A stretch of DNA of 64,000 nt, taken from assembly GCA_001662655.1 (NCBI GenBank), contig KV460206.1. The stretch is one strand, 5' to 3'. A program made the position numbers and the translations under genes. The notes under the pieces were generated by a model. That model was given only the letters and a program-made list of their open reading frames with translations. It did no database searches and was not told the origin of the DNA. Positions 5,821 to 31,589 of this stretch are shown in pieces (position 1 is the stretch's first letter; every line of letters begins with the position of its first letter). The DNA is from Pseudogymnoascus verrucosus (taxonomy: Eukaryota).

Positions 5821-6308
5821 GGGGGAGAGGAGTAATGACGGGGAGGTTGGGTGAGAAGGGGGGGGGATTGGAATATATGCCTTGACGGCTGAATGTGGCG
5901 TTTTTTTTTGTTTTTATTAGAGCGTGGTTGGCATAGGATACCACCGCGCATTGATTGCATATGTGGATGGATATTTGTAAAAAGAATAGAAGGGAGATGA
6001 AGGGGGGGGGTTATAGATGAACGAATAGGATACAGAATTCAATTCTTTTTACTATTTATAATGAGATCCAAACATCAGGGGAAGGGGTGCGCCCTCGTCA
6101 AGGATATAGTGGAAGGCAGAGGTCAGATTGTCCACCTGTGTAAGCCCATCGAAGGTCGATATTGTTGGCAATGGAGCCATACTGTCGTCGAAACGTTTGA
6201 TCAAAACGCACACGGGGATCACTACTCTTTTGCAGCACGGAGTTTAGGTATCGTAAAGCGGATAGCAGCGGCAACAGCAAGTGGCAACGGTAAGCAAGAA
6301 AGAACGGT

Positions 6309-6509
6309 GACAGCAGGCGGCAACGACAGCAGCAGCTAGAATGGTAACAGCAATATCGCTCCTTTCTTTGGGTCCAGTTCCACCCGGAATCCCATCCCAT
6401 GACAACAGGCGGCAACGACAGCAGCAGCTAGAATGGTAACAGGAGGTGGCAACGACAAGAGGTAACAGCAATATCGCTCCTTTCTTCGGGTCCAGTTCCA
6501 CCCGGAATC
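6309..6509 (+). repeat. Tandem ~83-bp direct duplication; copy 2 carries a 26-bp insertion
   Basis: 6309-6391 and 6401-6509 share GACA(G/A)CAGGCGGCAACGACAGCAGCAGCTAGAATGGTAACAG...CAATATCGCTCCTTTCTT(T/C)GGGTCCAGTTCCACCCGGAATC. Confidence 0.9.
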
Positions 6510-7449
6510 TCATCAAAGTGAAATATGGAATCAGTCCCGATTAGTCGCATGTTGCATAGTGAGTGCATTTGATGGCATGCGACGTGGGATTTTCTGCTGC
6601 TACTGCTGATGATGAACTTGGGAATGGGTTTGGGCTTATCTTGGAGATGACCACCGTCCTTTCACATTGTTGTCTCATGCATGTGGAGGGATTTTCGTGA
6701 ACTCCGCGGCCTCTCCAAGAAATTCCCCTTGTCGAAGTGGGAGGTTATATTCTAGTTCCCAACGCCAACCATCTCGTACTAGGACCACTCTTTTATCGTC
6801 GCTTAAACGATCGCGGTAATCAAGGACATCGAGGTCTCAGAACAGACAGGGATTAGCACGGCGAGGAGGCAAGAGCTTGTCAGTATGAGATGTAGGGGGT
6901 TCAATTGTGTTCGACAGCATCTGAAGCTTCACAGTTACGAGAAGGCAGCAGTGACAGCAACAGCAACAGCGATAGCGACAGTAACCGGCGACGGCAAGAA
7001 GCATGCGACGGCAAGAAGCAAGCGAAGTAAAAGTTTATGCTTCCACTCGGAGGTGGGCACTATAGCGCTCAGGCACATCGATCCTTTCTTCCAGTAGTCT
7101 CAAGGTCCTTTGGATCTCATCCTCTGAAGGCATTGTGAACCCCCGTGTGCTTGGATTACTAGATACTGTCCAATCTCGTTCGGAACACAAGTAAATTCAG
7201 AAAGTCTAAACAGACGAAAGAGATAGAAGATATACAGAGAAGGTGGGAAGGTAGAAGGTGGGAAGGTAGGAGAGTAGAGGTGAGAGGTAGAAGGTATAGC
7301 AGTTCAAGAAGGTAAAGTCTAGGAAATAAAAGTGAAATTAAGCGTACAATTCGACTATAAACGATTATTATGTTAATTAAGTTAGACAGCGTCTAATTCT
7401 GCTTACCTCAATCTTCTTATATATAGTCTTTTTTGTTAAGTTTCGAGAA

Positions 7450-7800
7450 ACACTTACTTCAGCATTAGACAGGTCTGTTTCTTCTCTTGCGTGCTTAGCG
7501 TTCTTCCCTTTCGCGACCTGAAGGTTGTTGACATAGAAAATATGTAGTATGGGTTAGACTTGGTCGAAACACACATCAACGACGGGACAGAGATCATCTC
7601 ACACAAACTCGCTCGCACTGGTGCCGTCCTGTGTAAATTGCACACATTTGATTCAGAAGCACGCAAGAAGCAGAAGTCATGCCAAGAGGTTAGGTTTTAA
7701 TCTTCTGCAATGATGCGGTTGTCCACAGTAAAAACGTGCCCTTCATCAACCTGTTGCGATTCCAGCTCTTCCCGAGGCAGTGAAAAAACCGCCAGGCCTC
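7450..7800 (-). pseudogene. Possible decayed coding exon of unknown family
   Basis: Minus-strand frames read LPREELESQQVDEGHVFTVDNRIIAED*NLTSWHDFCF... and, shifted, QDGTSASEFV*DDLCPVVDVCFDQV*PILHIFYVNNLQVAKGKNAKHAREETDLSNAE, ending at a GTAAGT donor. No family recognised. Confidence 0.25.
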
Positions 7801-7849
7801 AGGCGCGCTTACAATGGCCATAGCATGTAGTAATAGTAAGTGAGAGTTG

Positions 7850-7985
7850 AGGACAGCAAGCGGCGATGACAACGACGGGTAGTAATAGCAGCAGCAACAG
7901 TGACAGCAGCGGCAGCGGCAGCAGTGACAGCGACAGCAACAGCGACAGTGACAGCAGCAGTGAGCGGCAACAGCAAGTAGTAACG
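7850..7985 (+). repeat. Degenerate GACAGCA/GCAGCG low-complexity array
   Basis: GCAGCAACAGTGACAGCAGCGGCAGCGGCAGCAGTGACAGCGACAGCAACAGCGACAGTGACAGCAGC; related arrays at ~6265-6340, 6945-7020 and, inverted, 13280-13470. Confidence 0.8.
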
Positions 7986-8264
7986 TAACTGCAAGTTCAT
8001 CTTGTTCCTACTCGCCCCTGTCCCCTCTCCCCGCGCCTCATCCTCCTTTCTCATTGTTGGAACTTAGGAGGTCAATCGAGATAACCTATTTATTATCCCT
8101 AGTTGAGCTCAGCTGATGCGGCTGGTGGATTTTATCTTCTTGGCCCTATTCCCGAGTATCCAACATAAGTTTCCAACATAACAATTATAGCCTTTAGTCA
8201 CTGAGAGTTTTTATTTCCAATTATAGCTACTGAAATCCACCACCATCACCTCAGCTCGAGTTAT

Positions 8265-20386: not shown

Positions 20387-20525
20387 GTGAGAGGGCAGAT
20401 GTGAGAAGGCAGATGTGAGAAGGCAGAGGTGAGAAGGCAGAGGTGAGGAGAAGACAGAGGTGAGGAGAAGTCAGAGGTGAGTAGAAGACAGAGGTGAGAA
20501 GAAGACGGAGGTGAGAAGTCACAGG
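20387..20525 (+). repeat. Purine-rich minisatellite; 14-bp unit GTGAGAAGGCAGA(T/G) grading into 17-bp GTGAGGAGAAGACAGAG
   Basis: About 9 consecutive imperfect units; a similar purine array AGAAGGTGGGAAGGT lies at ~7238-7295. Confidence 0.85.
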
Positions 20526-21816
20526 AGAGAAAACTACGTGGGCGAGAATTCTGCACTGGCGAACTTGTTGGAGGTCACCCAAAGTTAGTTCTGCGAATAT
20601 CCCGAGTGCGGCTGTGCTGTTGAACTTGAATATCAACTCTGTGGGACCACCAGCGCGAGAATTTATTCCGTAAGCTCGGCCACTCTCAGAGTCTCCCCCG
20701 TGAACATCGTACTCCTGCTACTATCGTTGATCGTAGACTTTTTCAGTTCTGCCGTTCAGGGGATGCACCAATAATACCCCAGATAGATATTAGCACCACT
20801 AACTAATATTGAAGCTTCCACTTATCATATCACAGAGCAAGGAATCAGATCCGTTCTCACTGTGAGCGAGACTTAGGATTGAGTTGTATCGTTTGATATC
20901 TCAGATTTAGTACCTAGGAAAGCAGTCCGTAGTCTTCGCGAGCAAAGACATGAATGACATAACTTACGAAGTACTTTTCATCTCCGCTTGCATAAAATTA
21001 TATATGGTTTGAGCTGAACCAACTTGAAAGGGAAGGGGGCCCCAACCACAACCAGTATCATCGTTATGTCTCCTAATTGGGGTTTGGCATGAGTTGATTA
21101 ACTCGGGGCGCCAGCACATTAGGCGTTGGGCCTAAATCTTTCAATTATTCGACGGTTTGGGCAGACCCCTACGTGGGCTTCCCGTATTCGGCAATATCCT
21201 CAAACAACCTCGCTGGCACCGACAACATATCGCCTGTTGCCAGCATTGACTACTCCGCTTATCGTCTAGATCTGGTTAGGTTAGGACTACCCGCCCGCCG
21301 TTATATTAGCCCGCACAGGAGTTACCTCCGCACAGACTGATAACTCGGCAATTTCCTCTCCTAATCCACACTGCGTCCTTTGTCTCATCCTATCAACACA
21401 TGGCAACACATGGCAACACGCGGCCACAAATAGATCTTGGATCATCATTCCCTTGTTTAGATGAACTTGTCACTGTGGAAACGCCTTAGTACCCTTGGCA
21501 CCTTCCCGAGGGACTTCTATGGGTTGATCTAGACCTGGGGGTTTGTTTGCGGATCATGGTTCTGCCGTCCTGGATCCCTTGCTGACGGTTTCATAGTCTA
21601 TACATAGTAAAACGCCAAATTTTTGACTATTTTACTCTTCTCTCCTTCTCTCCTTCTCTCCTTCTCTTCTTTCTCTTAATTTCAATCTCCTCTGTCTTGT
21701 GTTTCCTGTGTTTCTTATTCCTTGCGATGGTAACGTAATAACTACTAATTCTAGTCTGGTGTCATCCTTTTTTCCAATCATACTTTAGACAAACTAGGAC
21801 ATTCACCTAAATCAAA

Positions 21817-23563
21817 ATGGCCGATGACGCGCCAGCCCCACCAGGAGGAGCACCAGCTCAAGGGGAAGGAGGAGGAGGAGGCGGAGGCGGAGGCGGAGGA
21901 GGAGCACCAACTCAGGGAGGAGGAGAAGGAGGAGTAGGAGCACCAGCTCAAGGAGGAGGAGGAGGAGGAGGAGCCCAAATTAACTCACATGCCCATCTGC
22001 ACGAGAGCGTCCGACAGATGAAGGAGAGCACACACACGCGCACTATAACCAAGGATGCCCTTGACGCTCATGTCAGTGGCATTGCCACCCCCATGAGTCG
22101 CCCACTTTCCCACCACAGTTTGGATTTAGATGATTACTTTGTGAGTTACCTTCTCTCGAGATACAGTCAAGGATATCTTGGACATGAGACAGCGCACCTA
22201 CTAATACCACACGTAGGTTGGCCCACGCGATCTCGATGGACATTCGAAGCTTCCATATTTCATGCGTATGCATGGCAGTGTTTTGCCGCGAATGATTATA
22301 CCTCTTTTCTGCATTGGAGCATGGGCCACCTTCATTACCTGCATCTGTGAATTTGTCACAAAGCGTACGACCCCCAAACGATACTTCCAGGTCAAGCTAA
22401 CCTTTAAACCTTTGCAGTCGGCGTTGACACTGTCCTTCTCACTGTTCTCGGTTTCGTTGTCGGACTTTCTCTCTCTTTCCGAAGTTCGACAGCTTACGAA
22501 CGGTATACTACTCACTATACTTACAATCCAAACAAAGCTGATAGTCGCCTAGTTATTCGGAAGGCCGCAAAACATGGTGTACACTCATGATCCAATGCCG
22601 AAACATCGCCCGCTATGTCTGGGTTCACGTCGAAGAGCGTGAAGGCGACCAGAGCAAGGAAGATCTCCTCCAAAAAATCACTGCGATGAACCTGGTCCTT
22701 GGTTTCGCCGTCGCAGTCAAGCATCGTCTTCGATTCGAACCGTACGCTCATTATGATGATATCGCAGGGCTCGTTTCCCACCTCGATACCTATGCCAAGG
22801 CTGCGTTCAAAGAAGAGCACTTGGAGAAGAAGAGAACGAGTACTTGGAAAGCGTTGGGTGAGAAGCTCGGCTTACCATTCGCGCTCTCAAACCCCAGAAA
22901 GGAAATGAAGCGATCGGATCGGCCTTTGGGTAATCTTCCTCTTGAAATTTTAGCCTACTTGAGCGCATACTTCGAGGAAGTTTCCACGAATGGTCAAATG
23001 AAGTCAGCCGTGATGGGGGGTCAATTCCGTAAGTAGCAATCTTCTTTACTCGCCATCGAATACTCACCCCCACAGTGACCGCCCTTGCTGGCATGACAGA
23101 CACCGCCGGCAACGCGGAACGTGTCCTTACAACCCCCCTCCCTGTCGGATACAACATCCTGATCTCCCAAATCGTTCTCCTCTACATTTTTCTGCTCCCA
23201 TTCCAGCTGTACGACAAGCTTAAATGGATCACAATCCCCGGCACCATTGCGGCCGCCTACATCATCCTCGGCATCGCGACGATTGGCGACGAGCTGGAGA
23301 ATCCCTTCGGCAATGACGTCAATGACCTCCCACTCGACCAGTACTGTGCCGAGTTGGGCCGGGAGCTAGATACCCTGATGAGCACGCCATGTCCGAAGTT
23401 CACTGACCACGTCGATCTCAACAAGCATCTCAACCAGCCGCTATGGCCTTTGAGCGCGAGCAGGTATCAGGAGTGGAGGGAGAGGAGCGAGACGGATATT
23501 CGCAGTGCGTTGAGGACTAAAGTTGTTGCGGGAAAGGGATCTGTGGGTAGTGTGTCTATGTGA
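21817..23563 (+). CDS. Bestrophin-like/UPF0187 membrane protein (putative anion channel); introns 22141-22216, 22365-22417, 22503-22552, 23029-23075
   Basis: Spliced motifs 'DDYF|VGPRDLDGHSKLPYFMRMHGSVLPRM', 'LLTVLGFVVGLSLSFRSSTAYER|YSEGRKTW', 'ERVLTTPLPVGY', 'IGDELENPFGNDVNDLPLD'. Gly-rich repetitive N-terminus. Confidence 0.88.
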
Positions 23564-25373: not shown

Positions 25374-27322
25374 ATGTTCTCTTTAGGTGTTTACCTCCAA
25401 GTCGCTGCGTCCCTAGCTGTGACCTTCGTCTCTTATTTTATTTGGACATATCTAACCTCCCCAAGTAAGCTTCAATTTGCTATGTTATTCCGTCAATACA
25501 CTACCTACTCTCTTAGAGTGACTTGGTTATCTTTGGTTGTCGTCAGTGCCTTCCGAGGCTCCCCCAGAGCATTGCGTTTAAAAAAAATTCACTAACTTTC
25601 ATCGAGTCAAAAACATACCTGGACCTTTCCTTGCAAAATGCACAAACTGGTGGCGATTTTTTAGCATATATAACAATCACTCGGTACAAACCCAACTCTC
25701 CCTCCACGATAAATACGGTTCCGCAGTGCAATTGGGTCCGAACCTTGTAAGTCTGAGCGACCCTAAGCTCCTTCGAACCCTTTACAATACCCGGGGCGAT
25801 TATCTCAAGGTGAGAACCCTTGCTAACCAAATTTCAAATTCGGTGTCTTACAAATTAGAGCAAATTCTATGATGTCAACTCCTCCAAAGTTGGCCACGAA
25901 ATCATATACAACGTCTTTTCAACAAGGAGCAATAAAGCACATGCTCACGCCATCAGACCTGTTCGGAAGCTCTTCAATCTCTCCTCCCTTCTAAAAACAG
26001 AACCACTTATTGACACAACCATTCAAACGCTCCTCTCCAAACTTGACTCCAACTTCGTTCTTGGCGAAAATTCCGGGAAGACGTGCAAGATGGACGACTG
26101 GCTTCCATTTTTCGCCTGGGATGTCATTGGCCGTTTGACATTTGGCGCGCCCATGGGCTACCTGGATAACGGTTGGGATTTCGATGGCTCTCAACGATCT
26201 GGAACAGAAACTTTCTTCTATTTCGCATGTGTTGGACAGATCCCTGAGCTGGACTACTTCCTGGCGAAGAACCCTGTGTGTCGCATTGGGCCACCCGCTT
26301 TCAATGGGCCGGCGATATTGTGTGCACAGCGAGTTGCTGAAAGACAGAAAGAGTTTGAAATTGAAGGAAAGGCCGATCATCAAGACATGCTTGAGGATTT
26401 CATGAGGATCAACAGAGAGGACCCCAGCATAATGGATGACAACGCTGTTGTAGGAGCACTCATTGTGAATGTTCTTGCCGGAGGAGATACAACTGGTATC
26501 CTACTCTGTGCTATCATCTATTACGTACTCAAGGACCAAGTTGTGTACAGGAAATTGATGGAAGAGCTCGATGCGGCGAATTTGACATGCCCTGTCAGCT
26601 ATGCGTCTACTGAAAAGTTGCCTTACTTTGATGCTGTGGTTAAGGAAGCTGCTCGTATGCATCCCGGTGTCGGCTTGATACTTGAGCGGGTTGTCCCTGC
26701 CGAGGGCCTCACGCTCTCAGATGGCAGGGTTCTTTCTCCAGGGACTGTCGTCGGTATGAATGCATGGGTGATCCATCAAAACAAGGAAATCTTTGGCGAC
26801 GACGCGGCGTCTTTTAACCCTGAACGCTGGCTGCGTGGTGAGGCAGAGACAGAGGAGGTTTGTGAATTTTCGTCATTGGTTTCCTGCTATCTCTTGAGAG
26901 CTGAGAATGCATTAAGAGTGCATCTATTGAAGACATCCTTACAGCTGTACACTCAATGCACTCCCGACATTCTCTCAGATCTTTAGAATTTTGTGAGAAA
27001 ATTATGCTAATTACTTAACCAGGGGTATCAGGCTCGGCTTAGCATGATGAAGAGTCATGATTTGACGTTTGGAGCTGGCAAGCGGGTCTGTATGGGCAGA
27101 AGCGTGAGTATTCTGGAGACATATAAGGTTATGACTACCTTGTTTTTGACGTATGAGGTGAGTCGTAAATTACTTGAATACTCTAGTTTTAAGGATTGAA
27201 TTAATGTTTATTAGATGAGTCTTGTGGATCCCAGCAAAGAATGGCACATTCTGTACTCTTGGTTTACGAAGCAGACTGGGATAGATGTGAAGCTTCGGAG
27301 AAGGAAAAGGATGGAGGTCTAG
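25374..27322 (+). CDS. Cytochrome P450 (pisatin demethylase-like); introns 25465-25606, 25810-25858, 26858-27022, 27158-27214
   Basis: N-terminal TM, 'IPGPFLAK', 'LHDKYGSAVQLGPN', I-helix 'AGGDTT', 'EAARMHP' (ExxR), 'FNPERW', heme motif 'FGAGKRVCMG'. The frame is continuous after splicing; intron 1 uses a rare GAG acceptor. Confidence 0.92.
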
Positions 27323-27515
27323 GTACGCTTTGTCAAATAGCACCACTACTCTAGTTAATACTGCCCTTCAATCGCTATGAATCTGCCTAGATTTGCCTTA
27401 CTTATGTTGGCCTCTACCAGCTACGATAATCCCCTTTTGCCCTGTAGTCATAATAGTATGGCGTTTTTATATTGGTTAGGATTAGTATTTATTCTACAGT
27501 GTGATAGTAACAAAC

Positions 27516-27576
27516 ACATACGACCATAGACTCAAGAGAGAAGGGAACCCCGTCCGCTCTGCCATACACAAGCTTG
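27516..27576 (+). pseudogene. 5S rRNA gene, 5' half only (truncated at ~nt 61)
   Basis: ACATACGACCATAGACTCAAGAGAGAAGGGAACCCCGTCCGCTCTGCCATACACAAGCTTG matches the filamentous-ascomycete 5S 5' end (ACATACGACCATA...CCCGTCCGCTC.GCC.TAC..AAGC). The expected ..TTAGTAGTT.GGTGGGTGACCAC..GCGAA..CTGTTGTATGT does not follow. Confidence 0.85.
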
Positions 27577-27899
27577 CGTAGCACCTAGACAATGGTCTCA
27601 ATTGTGCCAATGGGCATAGCGTATAATCTGAGCCCCTTGCCGCCGTAACGTCTATCACGGAGTCTTGAGCAAAAATTCGAGTCTCTTCCTACTATTTATA
27701 CTGGAATCATCGCCAGGAATATTGAAACTTTCAGTAAGACCAACGAGTTGCAGTCGATTGGCTTTCGCAGTGGTGTTTGGAACCCAGCTGTAATGCACGA
27801 TTGATTTTTTTTCTAGATAACTTATAGGAATAGCTTTGAGGCATGCCCTTTATTCATAACTACTTACACTCCTTCTGCTAACTTCCACAGGGCCCATAT

Positions 27900-28170: not shown

Positions 28171-29145
28171 GTGGTTACACTATTAACTACCAGCGATCAA
28201 CGCAAGAGCAGTCCGAGCCTACTGTTGTATAACGCAAGCATTGGAAATTTCTAACAGCAGATGTACTATATAGTGTCGAATGGCCACATGGTCTTTTAAT
28301 TGCTAGATTTCCTTCAAAGCTCCGGATTGCGCCGCAATAACCCCGGTATGGTAAGCTTTTTTTATATCTGTCGGAATTACGCAGCATTGTCAGATTCTAA
28401 CTGGCTGGGTAAAGAGCGTGGCTGAATCGAAAGATCAAATTAATTCAAATGTAGTCGTGAGAGACAGGCACTTTGCTTGACCTATACTCGACCTTGCCAC
28501 ATCAATAGCCCCCTGCTACGCTACGCTACGTCTCGTAGTCATTTTGAAAACAAGGTGTATTTGTATGACCAATTTCATGGAGTAGGGGAGGCCGTGCTGT
28601 GTGGGGATGAAACACCTTGTATGTACTATTACCCCAGCCCCTGTGATGATTATATACTTATCGACTATTTTAACTATAAGTTAATGCTAGCTATGTCATC
28701 TTATTTATAACATTTCACATAAGTTGGGAGCTGGATGTGGATTTCAATGAACTTCACGGAAGTGCCGATAATTTATCTCCTCCTAAACGAGGCATTTTTT
28801 GGTTCGCATAGCTCCAACCAACAGGGCTAATATATATATATATATTAGCCTGTATGCAAGCCAATTCCTTCGCGTACGTTGCCTTGCACTGTTTGACTGC
28901 TGTGTCTACTATGTGGTCTCCGCGGCCGTGAACTAGACCACTTGCGACCACCTTAACCTAAATAAGACCTTACGACATCTCCATACGCATTCCGTCGCTG
29001 TTGATTATTTAGAGTACCTCTCTGGAATACCTTGCTAGTGGGTTATTGCTTATTCTTAAGAGCTATACATACCCACATTTTTGACATTCGTGTTTGTTAA
29101 TTGTGTCAATTGCTTTTCTTGTGTTAGATTTGCGCCATCGAAGTT

Positions 29146-30824
29146 ATGAAGTGGACTATCACAGCGTCGCTGCTCCTGGCAGCCTTCAGCCAGACTGTTG
29201 TATCTTACCAGCTCGATGCTGCTTCATTTAGCAGATGTACAATAGCGGTATGTAAATCCGCTTCATTTCGTACATTATAGCCCCAGAGTATTAACAGATC
29301 AAATTAAATAGTGCCGAGAGTTAGATCTGCTCCTAAGGGGCCGAGTCGCGCTACCTCAGAGCTCAACATACCTGCTCGAAGATTTCCAACACTGGTCCGC
29401 CCAGCAGTCCAGCCAACGACCAGCCTGTCGTGTAACCCCCAAATCTGCACTAGACGTCTCTATAACCTTGAAAACACTCAAGGGTAACAAGTGCAACTTT
29501 GCAGTCAAGAGCGGTGGACATGCTTCATTCGCCGGTGCATCTAATATCGACGGCAGCGGTGTGGCTATCGACCTGAGAGATCTTAACAAGTTGATTGTCT
29601 CACCCGATAGGAAGCAAACGTCCGTGGGCGCAGGAATGGTCTGGTCTTCCGTTTACATGGAGTTAGATGCTCATAATCTAAGTACAGTCGGAGGAAGATC
29701 AGGCGGAATTGGTGTAGGGGGATTGACCCTTGGAGGTGGGATTTCATTCTTCTCTGGTCGATATGGATTTGCTTGTGATAATGTCAACAATTACCAAGTA
29801 AGATACATTAAATATCCCTCTTAGGAGTTTTGGCTGTGCGTCTAACAACTGTCGTACAGGTTGTTTTCGCTGATGGATCTATCAACGACGTTAATAAGAA
29901 GTCCCACCCAGATCTCTTTTTTGCCCTTCGAGGAGGTGGCAATAACTTTGGCATTGTCACTCGATTTGATCTCGCTTCCTTTGAGCAGGGCAAGATGTGG
30001 GGTGGCCAGCTTGCTTATACACCCGACAACATGCTCGCACTGAATACAGCACTCTATAATTTCAATATCAACCACTACAAGGACCCGTACGGTGCTGTTA
30101 TCCTCGCCTACGTTTATATTCCAGCCCAAGATTTTTTCATTAGTAGCCTTGATCTCGAGTATGGCAAGCCCATTGCTGATGCGGCAATCCTGGCAAACTT
30201 CACGAAAATCCCCAGCATCCAGAGTTCGGCCCGTATCACCAACCTGACAGATCTTACGATTGAATTAAACGCAACACAACCATCTGGCTTAAGAGAGACA
30301 TTTTGGACGTTCACGGTTCGTAATGATATTCAAATCATGACGGATATCCAAGCCCTGTTTGCATCTCAAGTTCCCGTTATTGCAAACGCAAGTGGCCTCC
30401 TACCAGCTTTAGTCTTCCAACCTATCTCCACGGCCATAACATCACATTTCACCGCAAACGGTGGTAACGCTCTCGGAATAACTGACAAGGATGGTCCTCT
30501 TATCCGTATGTTCTCCTATCTCCATTTGACGGCAATCTAACAACAGCTCTTTCAGTAATCAACATCTCCATCGCATGGGCAGATATTAAGGATGATAACC
30601 GCATCATGAAATTCGCAGCCAATTTTATCGACAGCGGCGTCGCGCTCGCAAAAAGCCGAAAGCTGGATCACAGATATATCTATCAGAACTACGCTGCTGC
30701 ACAACAGGACGTTTTCCCTGGTTATGGTCCAACCAACAAGGCGCGACTGAACGCCATTCAAAAAAAATATGACCCAACGAACGTATTCACAAAGCTGCAG
30801 CCGGGGTACTTTAAGCTTCGTTAA
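29146..30824 (+). CDS. Secreted FAD-binding oxidoreductase (berberine-bridge-enzyme-like); introns 29248-29311, 29798-29859, 30506-30555
   Basis: Signal peptide MKWTITASLLLAAFSQTVVS; 'FAVKSGGHA' (covalent-FAD His), 'VGGRSGGIGVGGLTLGGG', 'DLFFALRGGGNNFGIVTRF', C-terminal 'YQNYA..KKYDPTNVF'. Confidence 0.92.
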
Positions 30825-30874: not shown

Positions 30875-31190
30875 TGCTATATGGATCACAAGCTTCGGCG
30901 TGTGCTGGGACTAGGTTTGAACCACCAAACTTTAATTGGCGTTGCCCACCCACTGTGAAGGGTGATCTATTTAGTTTTGGCTCTACAATTTATACGATAA
31001 TCACTAGCCAATACCCGTTTCAAGAGGTCTCAAGCGACGAGGTCATAGAACGTTATAAGGCCCACGAGTTTCCTGATGTGACAGGAATAATGTGTGGAGA
31101 GATAATCAGCCGGTGCTGGCGCTGCGAAGTTGATTCTGCTCAAGAGATATATGATTCTATTCAAGCAGAAATAGAGCTACCCTATAAGTC
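30875..31190 (+). pseudogene. 5'-truncated protein kinase fragment (C-lobe only)
   Basis: 'LYGSQASACAGTRFEPP..PTVKGDLFSFGSTIYTIITSQYPFQEVSSDEVIERYKAHEFPDVTGIMCGEIISRCW' corresponds to subdomains VIII-XI. No N-lobe, catalytic loop or DFG; it starts ~50 bp after the oxidoreductase stop. Confidence 0.65.
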
Positions 31191-31589
31191 CTACTATTCA
31201 GAGATATCGCCAATACTGACGACTGCTTTCCCAAGTCGAAAAGTAGATATCTAATGATATGCCCAACCTAAGTCGCGCTTGCATTAAGAGTAGATTTGAC
31301 TTTCCTCTCGGAGATGTGAGATGATAAGCAGAGACTTGTATATTCATCAGTTGTTACTGATGCCTATGTAGGGATAAGTAAGTCATCTCTCTGTTCATTA
31401 GGGTCATCTTTTTGCATACAGCAGGATAAAGGAGTCAAGGGCGCTCCTAGAGATCAATGGGAACATTTATCACATGGTTCTGGTATATAGAACTTCAATA
31501 CCTGGATTGACCAACATTTATAAACTGCAGTGCTTTGTACAGCAACTACCTCGACCCGCTTATAAGATATACAAACTATACACACTCAC

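Follow-up and report, generated by a model that had tools for sequence, protein, structure and literature searches.

Osiris of Aspergillus fumigatus (PMC12153272; 10.1101/2024.06.28.601215) has an Enterprise-class captain and, in the part of the paper available to us, is described as inserting into and fragmenting 5S rDNA. Its direct repeats (aagcc, ttaagccac and aagccacacg; Table S3, PMC12153272) begin at the AAGC of 5S, as do those of the family studied here, a likeness drawn from the shared motif and the Rfam consensus; in both, short inverted repeats lie inside the direct repeats. The Osiris copies covered there are intact and segregating, range from tens of kb to ~140 kb, have other terminal sequences and occupy a genome with 28-33 5S copies. 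In the family here, by contrast, the captains seen beside termini are broken, paired remnants span 3-33 kb, most ends are orphan and about 50 5S genes are broken.

Voyager of Macrophomina phaseolina is likewise a DUF3435 Starship that always inserts into 5S rDNA, but it belongs to fam10 and inserts 20 bp from the 5S 5' end, whereas the family here inserts at nt 57-61 (PMC9156397, as far as its accessible text goes). A second, rarer 5S-targeting family in the genome, with an ~18-bp duplication of 5S nt 16-33, is nearer Voyager's target region; it was seen at L134 (C20:317719-322237), L128, L131, L157 and L166, and includes one 4.5-kb pair with HET and kinase ORFs. The consulted part of PMC9156397 also describes derelict Starship regions, in which the captain is lost or broken and the cargo persists, as here; those regions were defined by cargo genes, whereas the present remnants can be recognised from their termini and the halves of split 5S genes, even where a 72-bp scar is all that is left. 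HEPHAESTUS has been tested experimentally: it has target-like ends, is recombinase-dependent, acts in trans, is RIP-sensitive and leaves no footprint on excision, but it targets TTAC(N7)A rather than 5S and has a captain of another family (PMC10104507, in the portion seen). Our literature search found no report uniting Pseudogymnoascus, Starship and 5S rDNA; the one review that combined the first two looked unrelated.

The half 5S gene and its surroundings in the window

The window (the whole stretch of 64,000 nucleotides analysed here) contains nt 1-61 of a dispersed 5S gene, 56/61 (92%) identical to intact copies of the same genome; the start and the abrupt stop at 27576 reported by the first-pass annotation were exact. 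An intact 5S copy from the genome matched RF00001 positions 1-120. When the genome was searched with the 61-mer, the best 40 of 101 candidates scored comprised the fragment itself and 39 others at 92% (E 3.7e-18). Among the 30 5S loci returned, 22 run on to nt 120 and a T-run, and eight, the window copy included, end after nt 61. The window copy differs from intact copies at nt 25, 26, 27, 31 and 33. This variant is private, its one genomic match at two or fewer mismatches being the window itself, and its presence at a single place indicates decay rather than a second 5S type. Rfam cmscan, run on the window and on a 351-bp cut-out, did not report the fragment; a genome-wide Infernal tabulation with RF00001, as proposed earlier, would thus miss the half 5S here.

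Table 1. Features around the 5S junction in the window.
Feature	Position	Strand	Remarks
Cytochrome P450, upstream of 5S, host side of junction	25374..27322	+	PF00067; cluster of 12 named Pseudogymnoascus orthologues
TATA-like element	27486..27491	+	-30 to -25 of 5S start; the half gene's own upstream context retained; read from sequence
5S rRNA gene nt 1-61, pseudogene	27516..27576	+	Without intermediate element, box C, 3' strands of helices I and II, and terminator
Direct repeat GCTTG, 5S nt 57-61	27572..27576	+	Shared with captain-side junctions; reaches 7-8 nt in subtype A
Captain-distal (3') terminus of 5S-targeting DUF3435 element	27577..27648	-	Imperfect inverted-repeat arm (approximate), subtype D; repeated in genome
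FAD-linked oxidase (FAD_binding_4 + BBE)	29146..30824	+	Probably host gene, possibly very old cargo

The sequence after the break had been called unrelated. It is unrelated to 5S, but it is not single-copy: the 72-bp flank had 28 genomic matches, the window included, most of them at the same 5S break. It is the repeated terminus of an element, and inside the partner end lies a DUF3435 captain. Similarity to other copies stops at 27644-27648 in most matches. Terminus remnants elsewhere, among those with homology, range from 34 to 578 bp (median 154), and because these lengths vary so widely we dropped the idea that the retained 72 bp is a special length.

The window and the 66 kb beyond it were searched for a 5S 3' half or a captain-side end, and the sole one found was that at C1:1122281. 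That nearest 3' half lies 102.7 kb on, with subtype A against the tip's D and housekeeping genes between. What the window retains is an orphan 3' tip of 72 bp that has no partner; both the captain end and the 5S 3' half are absent. Since the captain reads antisense to 5S and lies inside the end that adjoins 3' halves, the window holds the captain-distal 3' end of a minus-strand element.

The neighbouring genes were compared with those of relatives. The closest named homologues of the window genes come from Pseudogymnoascus. The P450 and the FAD oxidase are adjacent in a relative, with 87-99% identity per exon, and in one relative's gene model they are fused, the oxidase being 95-99% identical over three large exons; this fused model includes a pseudo-exon matching 28309-28353, and ~56 of its residues had no match in the intergenic region or the other loci compared. 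From the P450 to UCH the distance is 7 locus tags in strain 05NY08 and 16 in WSF 3629, the two genes being on contigs of equal length; in a third strain they lie on different, short contigs. Among metagenome contigs, the P450 exon gave 71 pattern matches, with no relative confirmed. The linkage of the P450 and the oxidase in relatives indicates that the genes flanking the junction probably belong to the host and that the scar measures only about 72 bp. The cargo-like neighbours, earlier offered as a sign of insertion, accordingly lend little weight to it.

Other features of the window were recorded. Kinase-like fragments at 20805-21026 and 30877-31370, in opposite orientation, bracket a lower-GC island. 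Each of them matches the kinase ORF at G000:C61:79209, which itself sits ~20 kb downstream from a DUF3435 gene. Short degenerate tandem repeats, intergenic and at the start of the bestrophin gene, occur at 6308-6442, 6936-7991, 20390-20546 and 21843-21986.

Just past the right end of the window, a ~66-kb lower-GC region (G000:C1:1056287-1122281; L088-L082) starts with a captain fragment and subterminal pieces, and at its far end is a captain-side junction belonging to this family. The region holds a dual polyketide cluster, with a reducing PKS, a non-reducing PKS with terminal reductase, a P450, a transferase, a transporter and a transcription factor, and is probably a derelict Starship carrying a biosynthetic cluster as cargo.

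Split 5S genes, element ends and captains across the genome

Searches of the whole genome yielded 106 5' anchors and 79 3' anchors. Among the 100 5' anchors listed, 40 had a 3' anchor at the distance expected of an intact gene, whereas 60 were unpaired; 39/79 3' anchors were unpaired. The terminus was carried by 51 of the 66 5'-half loci examined. Breakpoint randomness, raised by the first-pass annotation, was thereby examined and the breakpoints are not random: the terminus core lies exactly 20 nt after nt 61 in 40/51, at 18-19 nt in three and at 23-24 nt in three, with offsets of 5, 9 and 46 among the remainder and no core found in two. The 15 5' halves below the terminus score end at nt 30-80; three of them are members of the second family, and another three stop at nt 61 and show only a degraded trace.

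A TATA-like motif was present at -38..-16 in 39/51 split 5' halves, compared with 4/51 in a control window, using a motif list chosen post hoc. The retained native upstream motif indicates that the split halves are native genes hit in place. Upstream flanks of the 51 junctions showed 21 short mutual matches, two of them over ~90-100 bp, so that independent insertions may number fewer than 51. The element family has broken about fifty of the genome's scattered 5S copies in the same way. One public metagenome assembly contained two captain-side junctions of the family at 85-90% identity, with no captain sequence in their contigs; viral contigs gave 0 matches to the junction pattern. Sequencing runs containing the window stretch exist, and no RNA run was among the matches listed.

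The second, captain-side end was found through terminus copies preceded by non-5S sequence, and it adjoins 5S 3' halves. Behind this terminus, 36 of 40 3' halves restart at nt 54-58 (nt 57 in 20, nt 54 in eight, nt 55 in six and nt 58 in two). The direct repeat common to both junction types is GCTTG to AAGCTTG, 5-8 bp, and is longer in one subtype (A). Aligned with each other, the ends make up an imperfect inverted repeat ~65-70 bp long, with cores near-perfect over 14-17 bp in the three end pairs aligned.

The outer 14-17 bp of the ends fall into four subtypes. Within 35 kb on one strand we found 13 end pairs, whose subtypes matched in 8/13 by automatic typing and 10/13 by eye; of the five mismatched automatically, C13 (a nested degenerate end) and C52 (a small deletion) were rescued by eye, and three remained mismatched. 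The paired remnants span 3.0-33.4 kb, beside the tens to hundreds of kb typical of Starships, 2/13 exceeding the 15 kb of the starfish filter, and all look internally deleted. They have ends and captain pieces in common, not cargo. Among 76 longer ORFs scanned, those in paired remnants elsewhere encode GH18/LysM, HET, HeLo-ankyrin, PNP_UDP-kinase and subtilase proteins, MFS and sugar transporters, GMC oxidase and AnmK, differing from remnant to remnant. The other loci thus have the Starship features of target-matching direct repeats at both boundaries, terminal inverted repeats and variable cargo.

Both ends show, in their outer 20 bp, a resemblance to 5S nt 62-81 (0/300 shuffles reach the score at each end); no such resemblance over shuffles was found to the reverse of 5S nt 37-56. 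By subtype, the likeness is strong in A, weaker in B (14/300 shuffles) and not significant in C (29/300) or in D, the window's subtype (55/300). As related copies are not independent, we treat it as a lead.

DUF3435 matches lay just inside the second end at C52, C25 and C27. The C52 remnant, with stops read as X, matched DUF3435 at E 1.4e-9 and has an intact homologue, RDL31538, in Venustampulla echinocandica. When RDL31538 was mapped back, its residue 1 fell 369 bp from the junction at C52, 357 bp at C27, 367 bp at C25 and 347 bp at C5. At these four loci, all outside the window, a DUF3435 gene thus lies within 2 kb of the boundary (347-369 bp inside), as is usual in a Starship, and the captain runs antisense to 5S. 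Every captain piece beside a terminus contains stops, mostly TAG/TAA, and no intact captain beside a family terminus was found among the best-scoring candidates of the genome searches. Between the C52 and C25 copies, 263/378 substitutions are transitions, and 118/210 with scorable context are at CpA. This pattern is RIP-like, as expected from RIP.

Residues R195, K241, H353, R356, H375 and Y385 of RDL31538 follow the R-K-H-R-H-Y order of Table S5 in PMC11162782, and Table S4 of the same paper, in the part consulted, places RDL31538 and OBT76035 in fam06, the family of Enterprise. Most Aspergillus elements of the Enterprise family target 5S, according to the text available from that paper. Judged by best hits, at 47-66% identity to the broken copies, the captain most likely belongs to Enterprise (fam06). 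A search of the starfish supplement (PMC11162782, the portion up to Table S10) for GCTTG, CAAGC and AAGCTT gave 11 occurrences; the six listed are TIR rows, with no matching direct repeat among them. One such occurrence, Aspergillus awamori GCB27642, was dropped as coincidence (fam01, DR attg). DUF3435 pieces of a different captain lineage, with few or no stops, occur at G000:C46:252464-253811 and C61:5060-5518, the C46 piece being ~39% identical to RDL31538; they are possibly the least decayed captains in the genome.

Three further arrangements were noted among the 5S loci. At four doublets, L044 (C3), L046 (C63), L059 (C57) and L023 (C15), a 5S 3' half comes first and then, 70-120 bp on at most, a 5' half with a new terminus. 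The captain-side end stands in front in three, C15 has the last 31 nt only, and the C57 and C15 spacers are homologous. Either tandem 5S pairs received two insertions, it seems, or the element carried 5S pieces along. At L014 (C22), L020 (C17) and L148 (C53), two intact 5S genes with their T-run precede the terminus and one 5S reaches nt 80 where it meets the terminus core; split genes may have been repaired here with an intact 5S as template. At L032, L039 and L040 there is no 5S: the direct repeat links a captain-side end straight to a captain-distal one, as a tandem insertion or an integrated circle-type junction.

Origin of the junction

Junction geometry, repeats, captain position and captain decay were observed directly, and the break at 27576/27577 is very probably the integration junction of a 5S-targeting DUF3435 Starship, most likely of the Enterprise family. 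The earlier proposal of a Starship insertion boundary is supported by the fixed breakpoints, the repeated terminus and the DUF3435 gene at the partner end. The caution that accompanied it, namely that without a captain this is at most a derelict element, also held: the window has no captain, and its locus is most probably the derelict end of a 5S-targeting Enterprise-type Starship.

Three other origins were weighed. The window tip could pair with the captain-side end at G000:C1:1122281 as one 102.7-kb element into which a 32-kb housekeeping block was rearranged or captured. The two ends lie on the same strand in the correct order, and a captain fragment, subterminal sequence and the ~66-67-kb lower-GC region with its dual-PKS cluster stand between the window end and C1:1122281. 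Their terminal subtypes, however, are D and A, and they align with a score of 8, where the end that matches best, on C3, reaches 28; between them, at 50-60% GC, are genes for OSBP, fructose-bisphosphate aldolase, UCH and RSN1; and the P450-UCH spacing in 05NY08 and WSF 3629 points to a layout common to relatives. We regard such a single element as very unlikely. The repetition of a 5S head plus tail in about 50 copies would also suit a 5S-derived SINE (SINE3) or a Cassandra-like element headed by 5S nt 1-61. A SINE3 has a 5S head with a complete internal promoter and moves as one unit, leaving its native upstream context behind. Here the heads end at nt 61, without box C, which is needed for internal Pol III transcription, and 39/51 retain native upstream context. 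Reciprocal 3' halves with the partner terminus and captain exist, the tails fade at the variable lengths given above, and the 5S-terminus chimera folds no better than shuffles (z -0.08). All of this makes such an origin highly improbable.

Ordinary birth-and-death turnover, leaving a truncated pseudogene beside a chance flank, deserves mention because truncated 5S pseudogenes are common in filamentous ascomycetes (PMC5555474, in the section available, citing Rooney and Ward 2005) and because most of the 15/66 5' halves below the terminus score end at scattered positions. At the window this explanation is refuted by the family terminus at the modal offset, and we give it next to no credence.

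For the Starship insertion, the following course can be proposed by analogy with HEPHAESTUS. The captain would have recombined the 5-8 bp overlap in the joined element ends with nt 54-61 (AAGCTTG) of a native 5S gene, splitting it into a 5' half joined to the element's 3' end and a 3' half joined to the element's 5' end. RIP may then have inactivated the captains and deletions eroded the element bodies, in this presumed order. At the window locus, nothing but 72 bp of the 3' end would have survived: the captain end and the 5S 3' half would be gone too, and the scar that is left would be immobile.

Meaning for 5S genes and Starships

Taken alone, the window locus is unremarkable, a 72-bp scar left by an element of a known kind; what stands out is how extensively 5S genes are broken in the genome. 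With some 50 left and 36 right junctions, all at a single target, the family far exceeds the handful per element in the papers compared, and so many junctions make recombinase specificity (overlap length, arm sequence and co-varying end subtypes) directly testable. Split 5S genes can also reveal captain-less Starship remnants that are missed by captain-first tools and by an Rfam scan.

We tentatively propose, as a possibility rather than an expectation, that a Leotiomycete Starship clade uses dispersed 5S genes as a genome-wide docking array, splitting more copies than stay intact and leaving different accessory genes at each decayed address, with a captain that would bind both the arms and the 5S internal control region in an att-like mimicry of the target. 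If this is true, the truncated 5S pseudogenes ascribed to birth-and-death evolution would largely be Starship scars, usable as markers of ancient sites of gene gain. For many truncated 5S pseudogenes of filamentous fungi, insertions of this kind are a concrete candidate cause.
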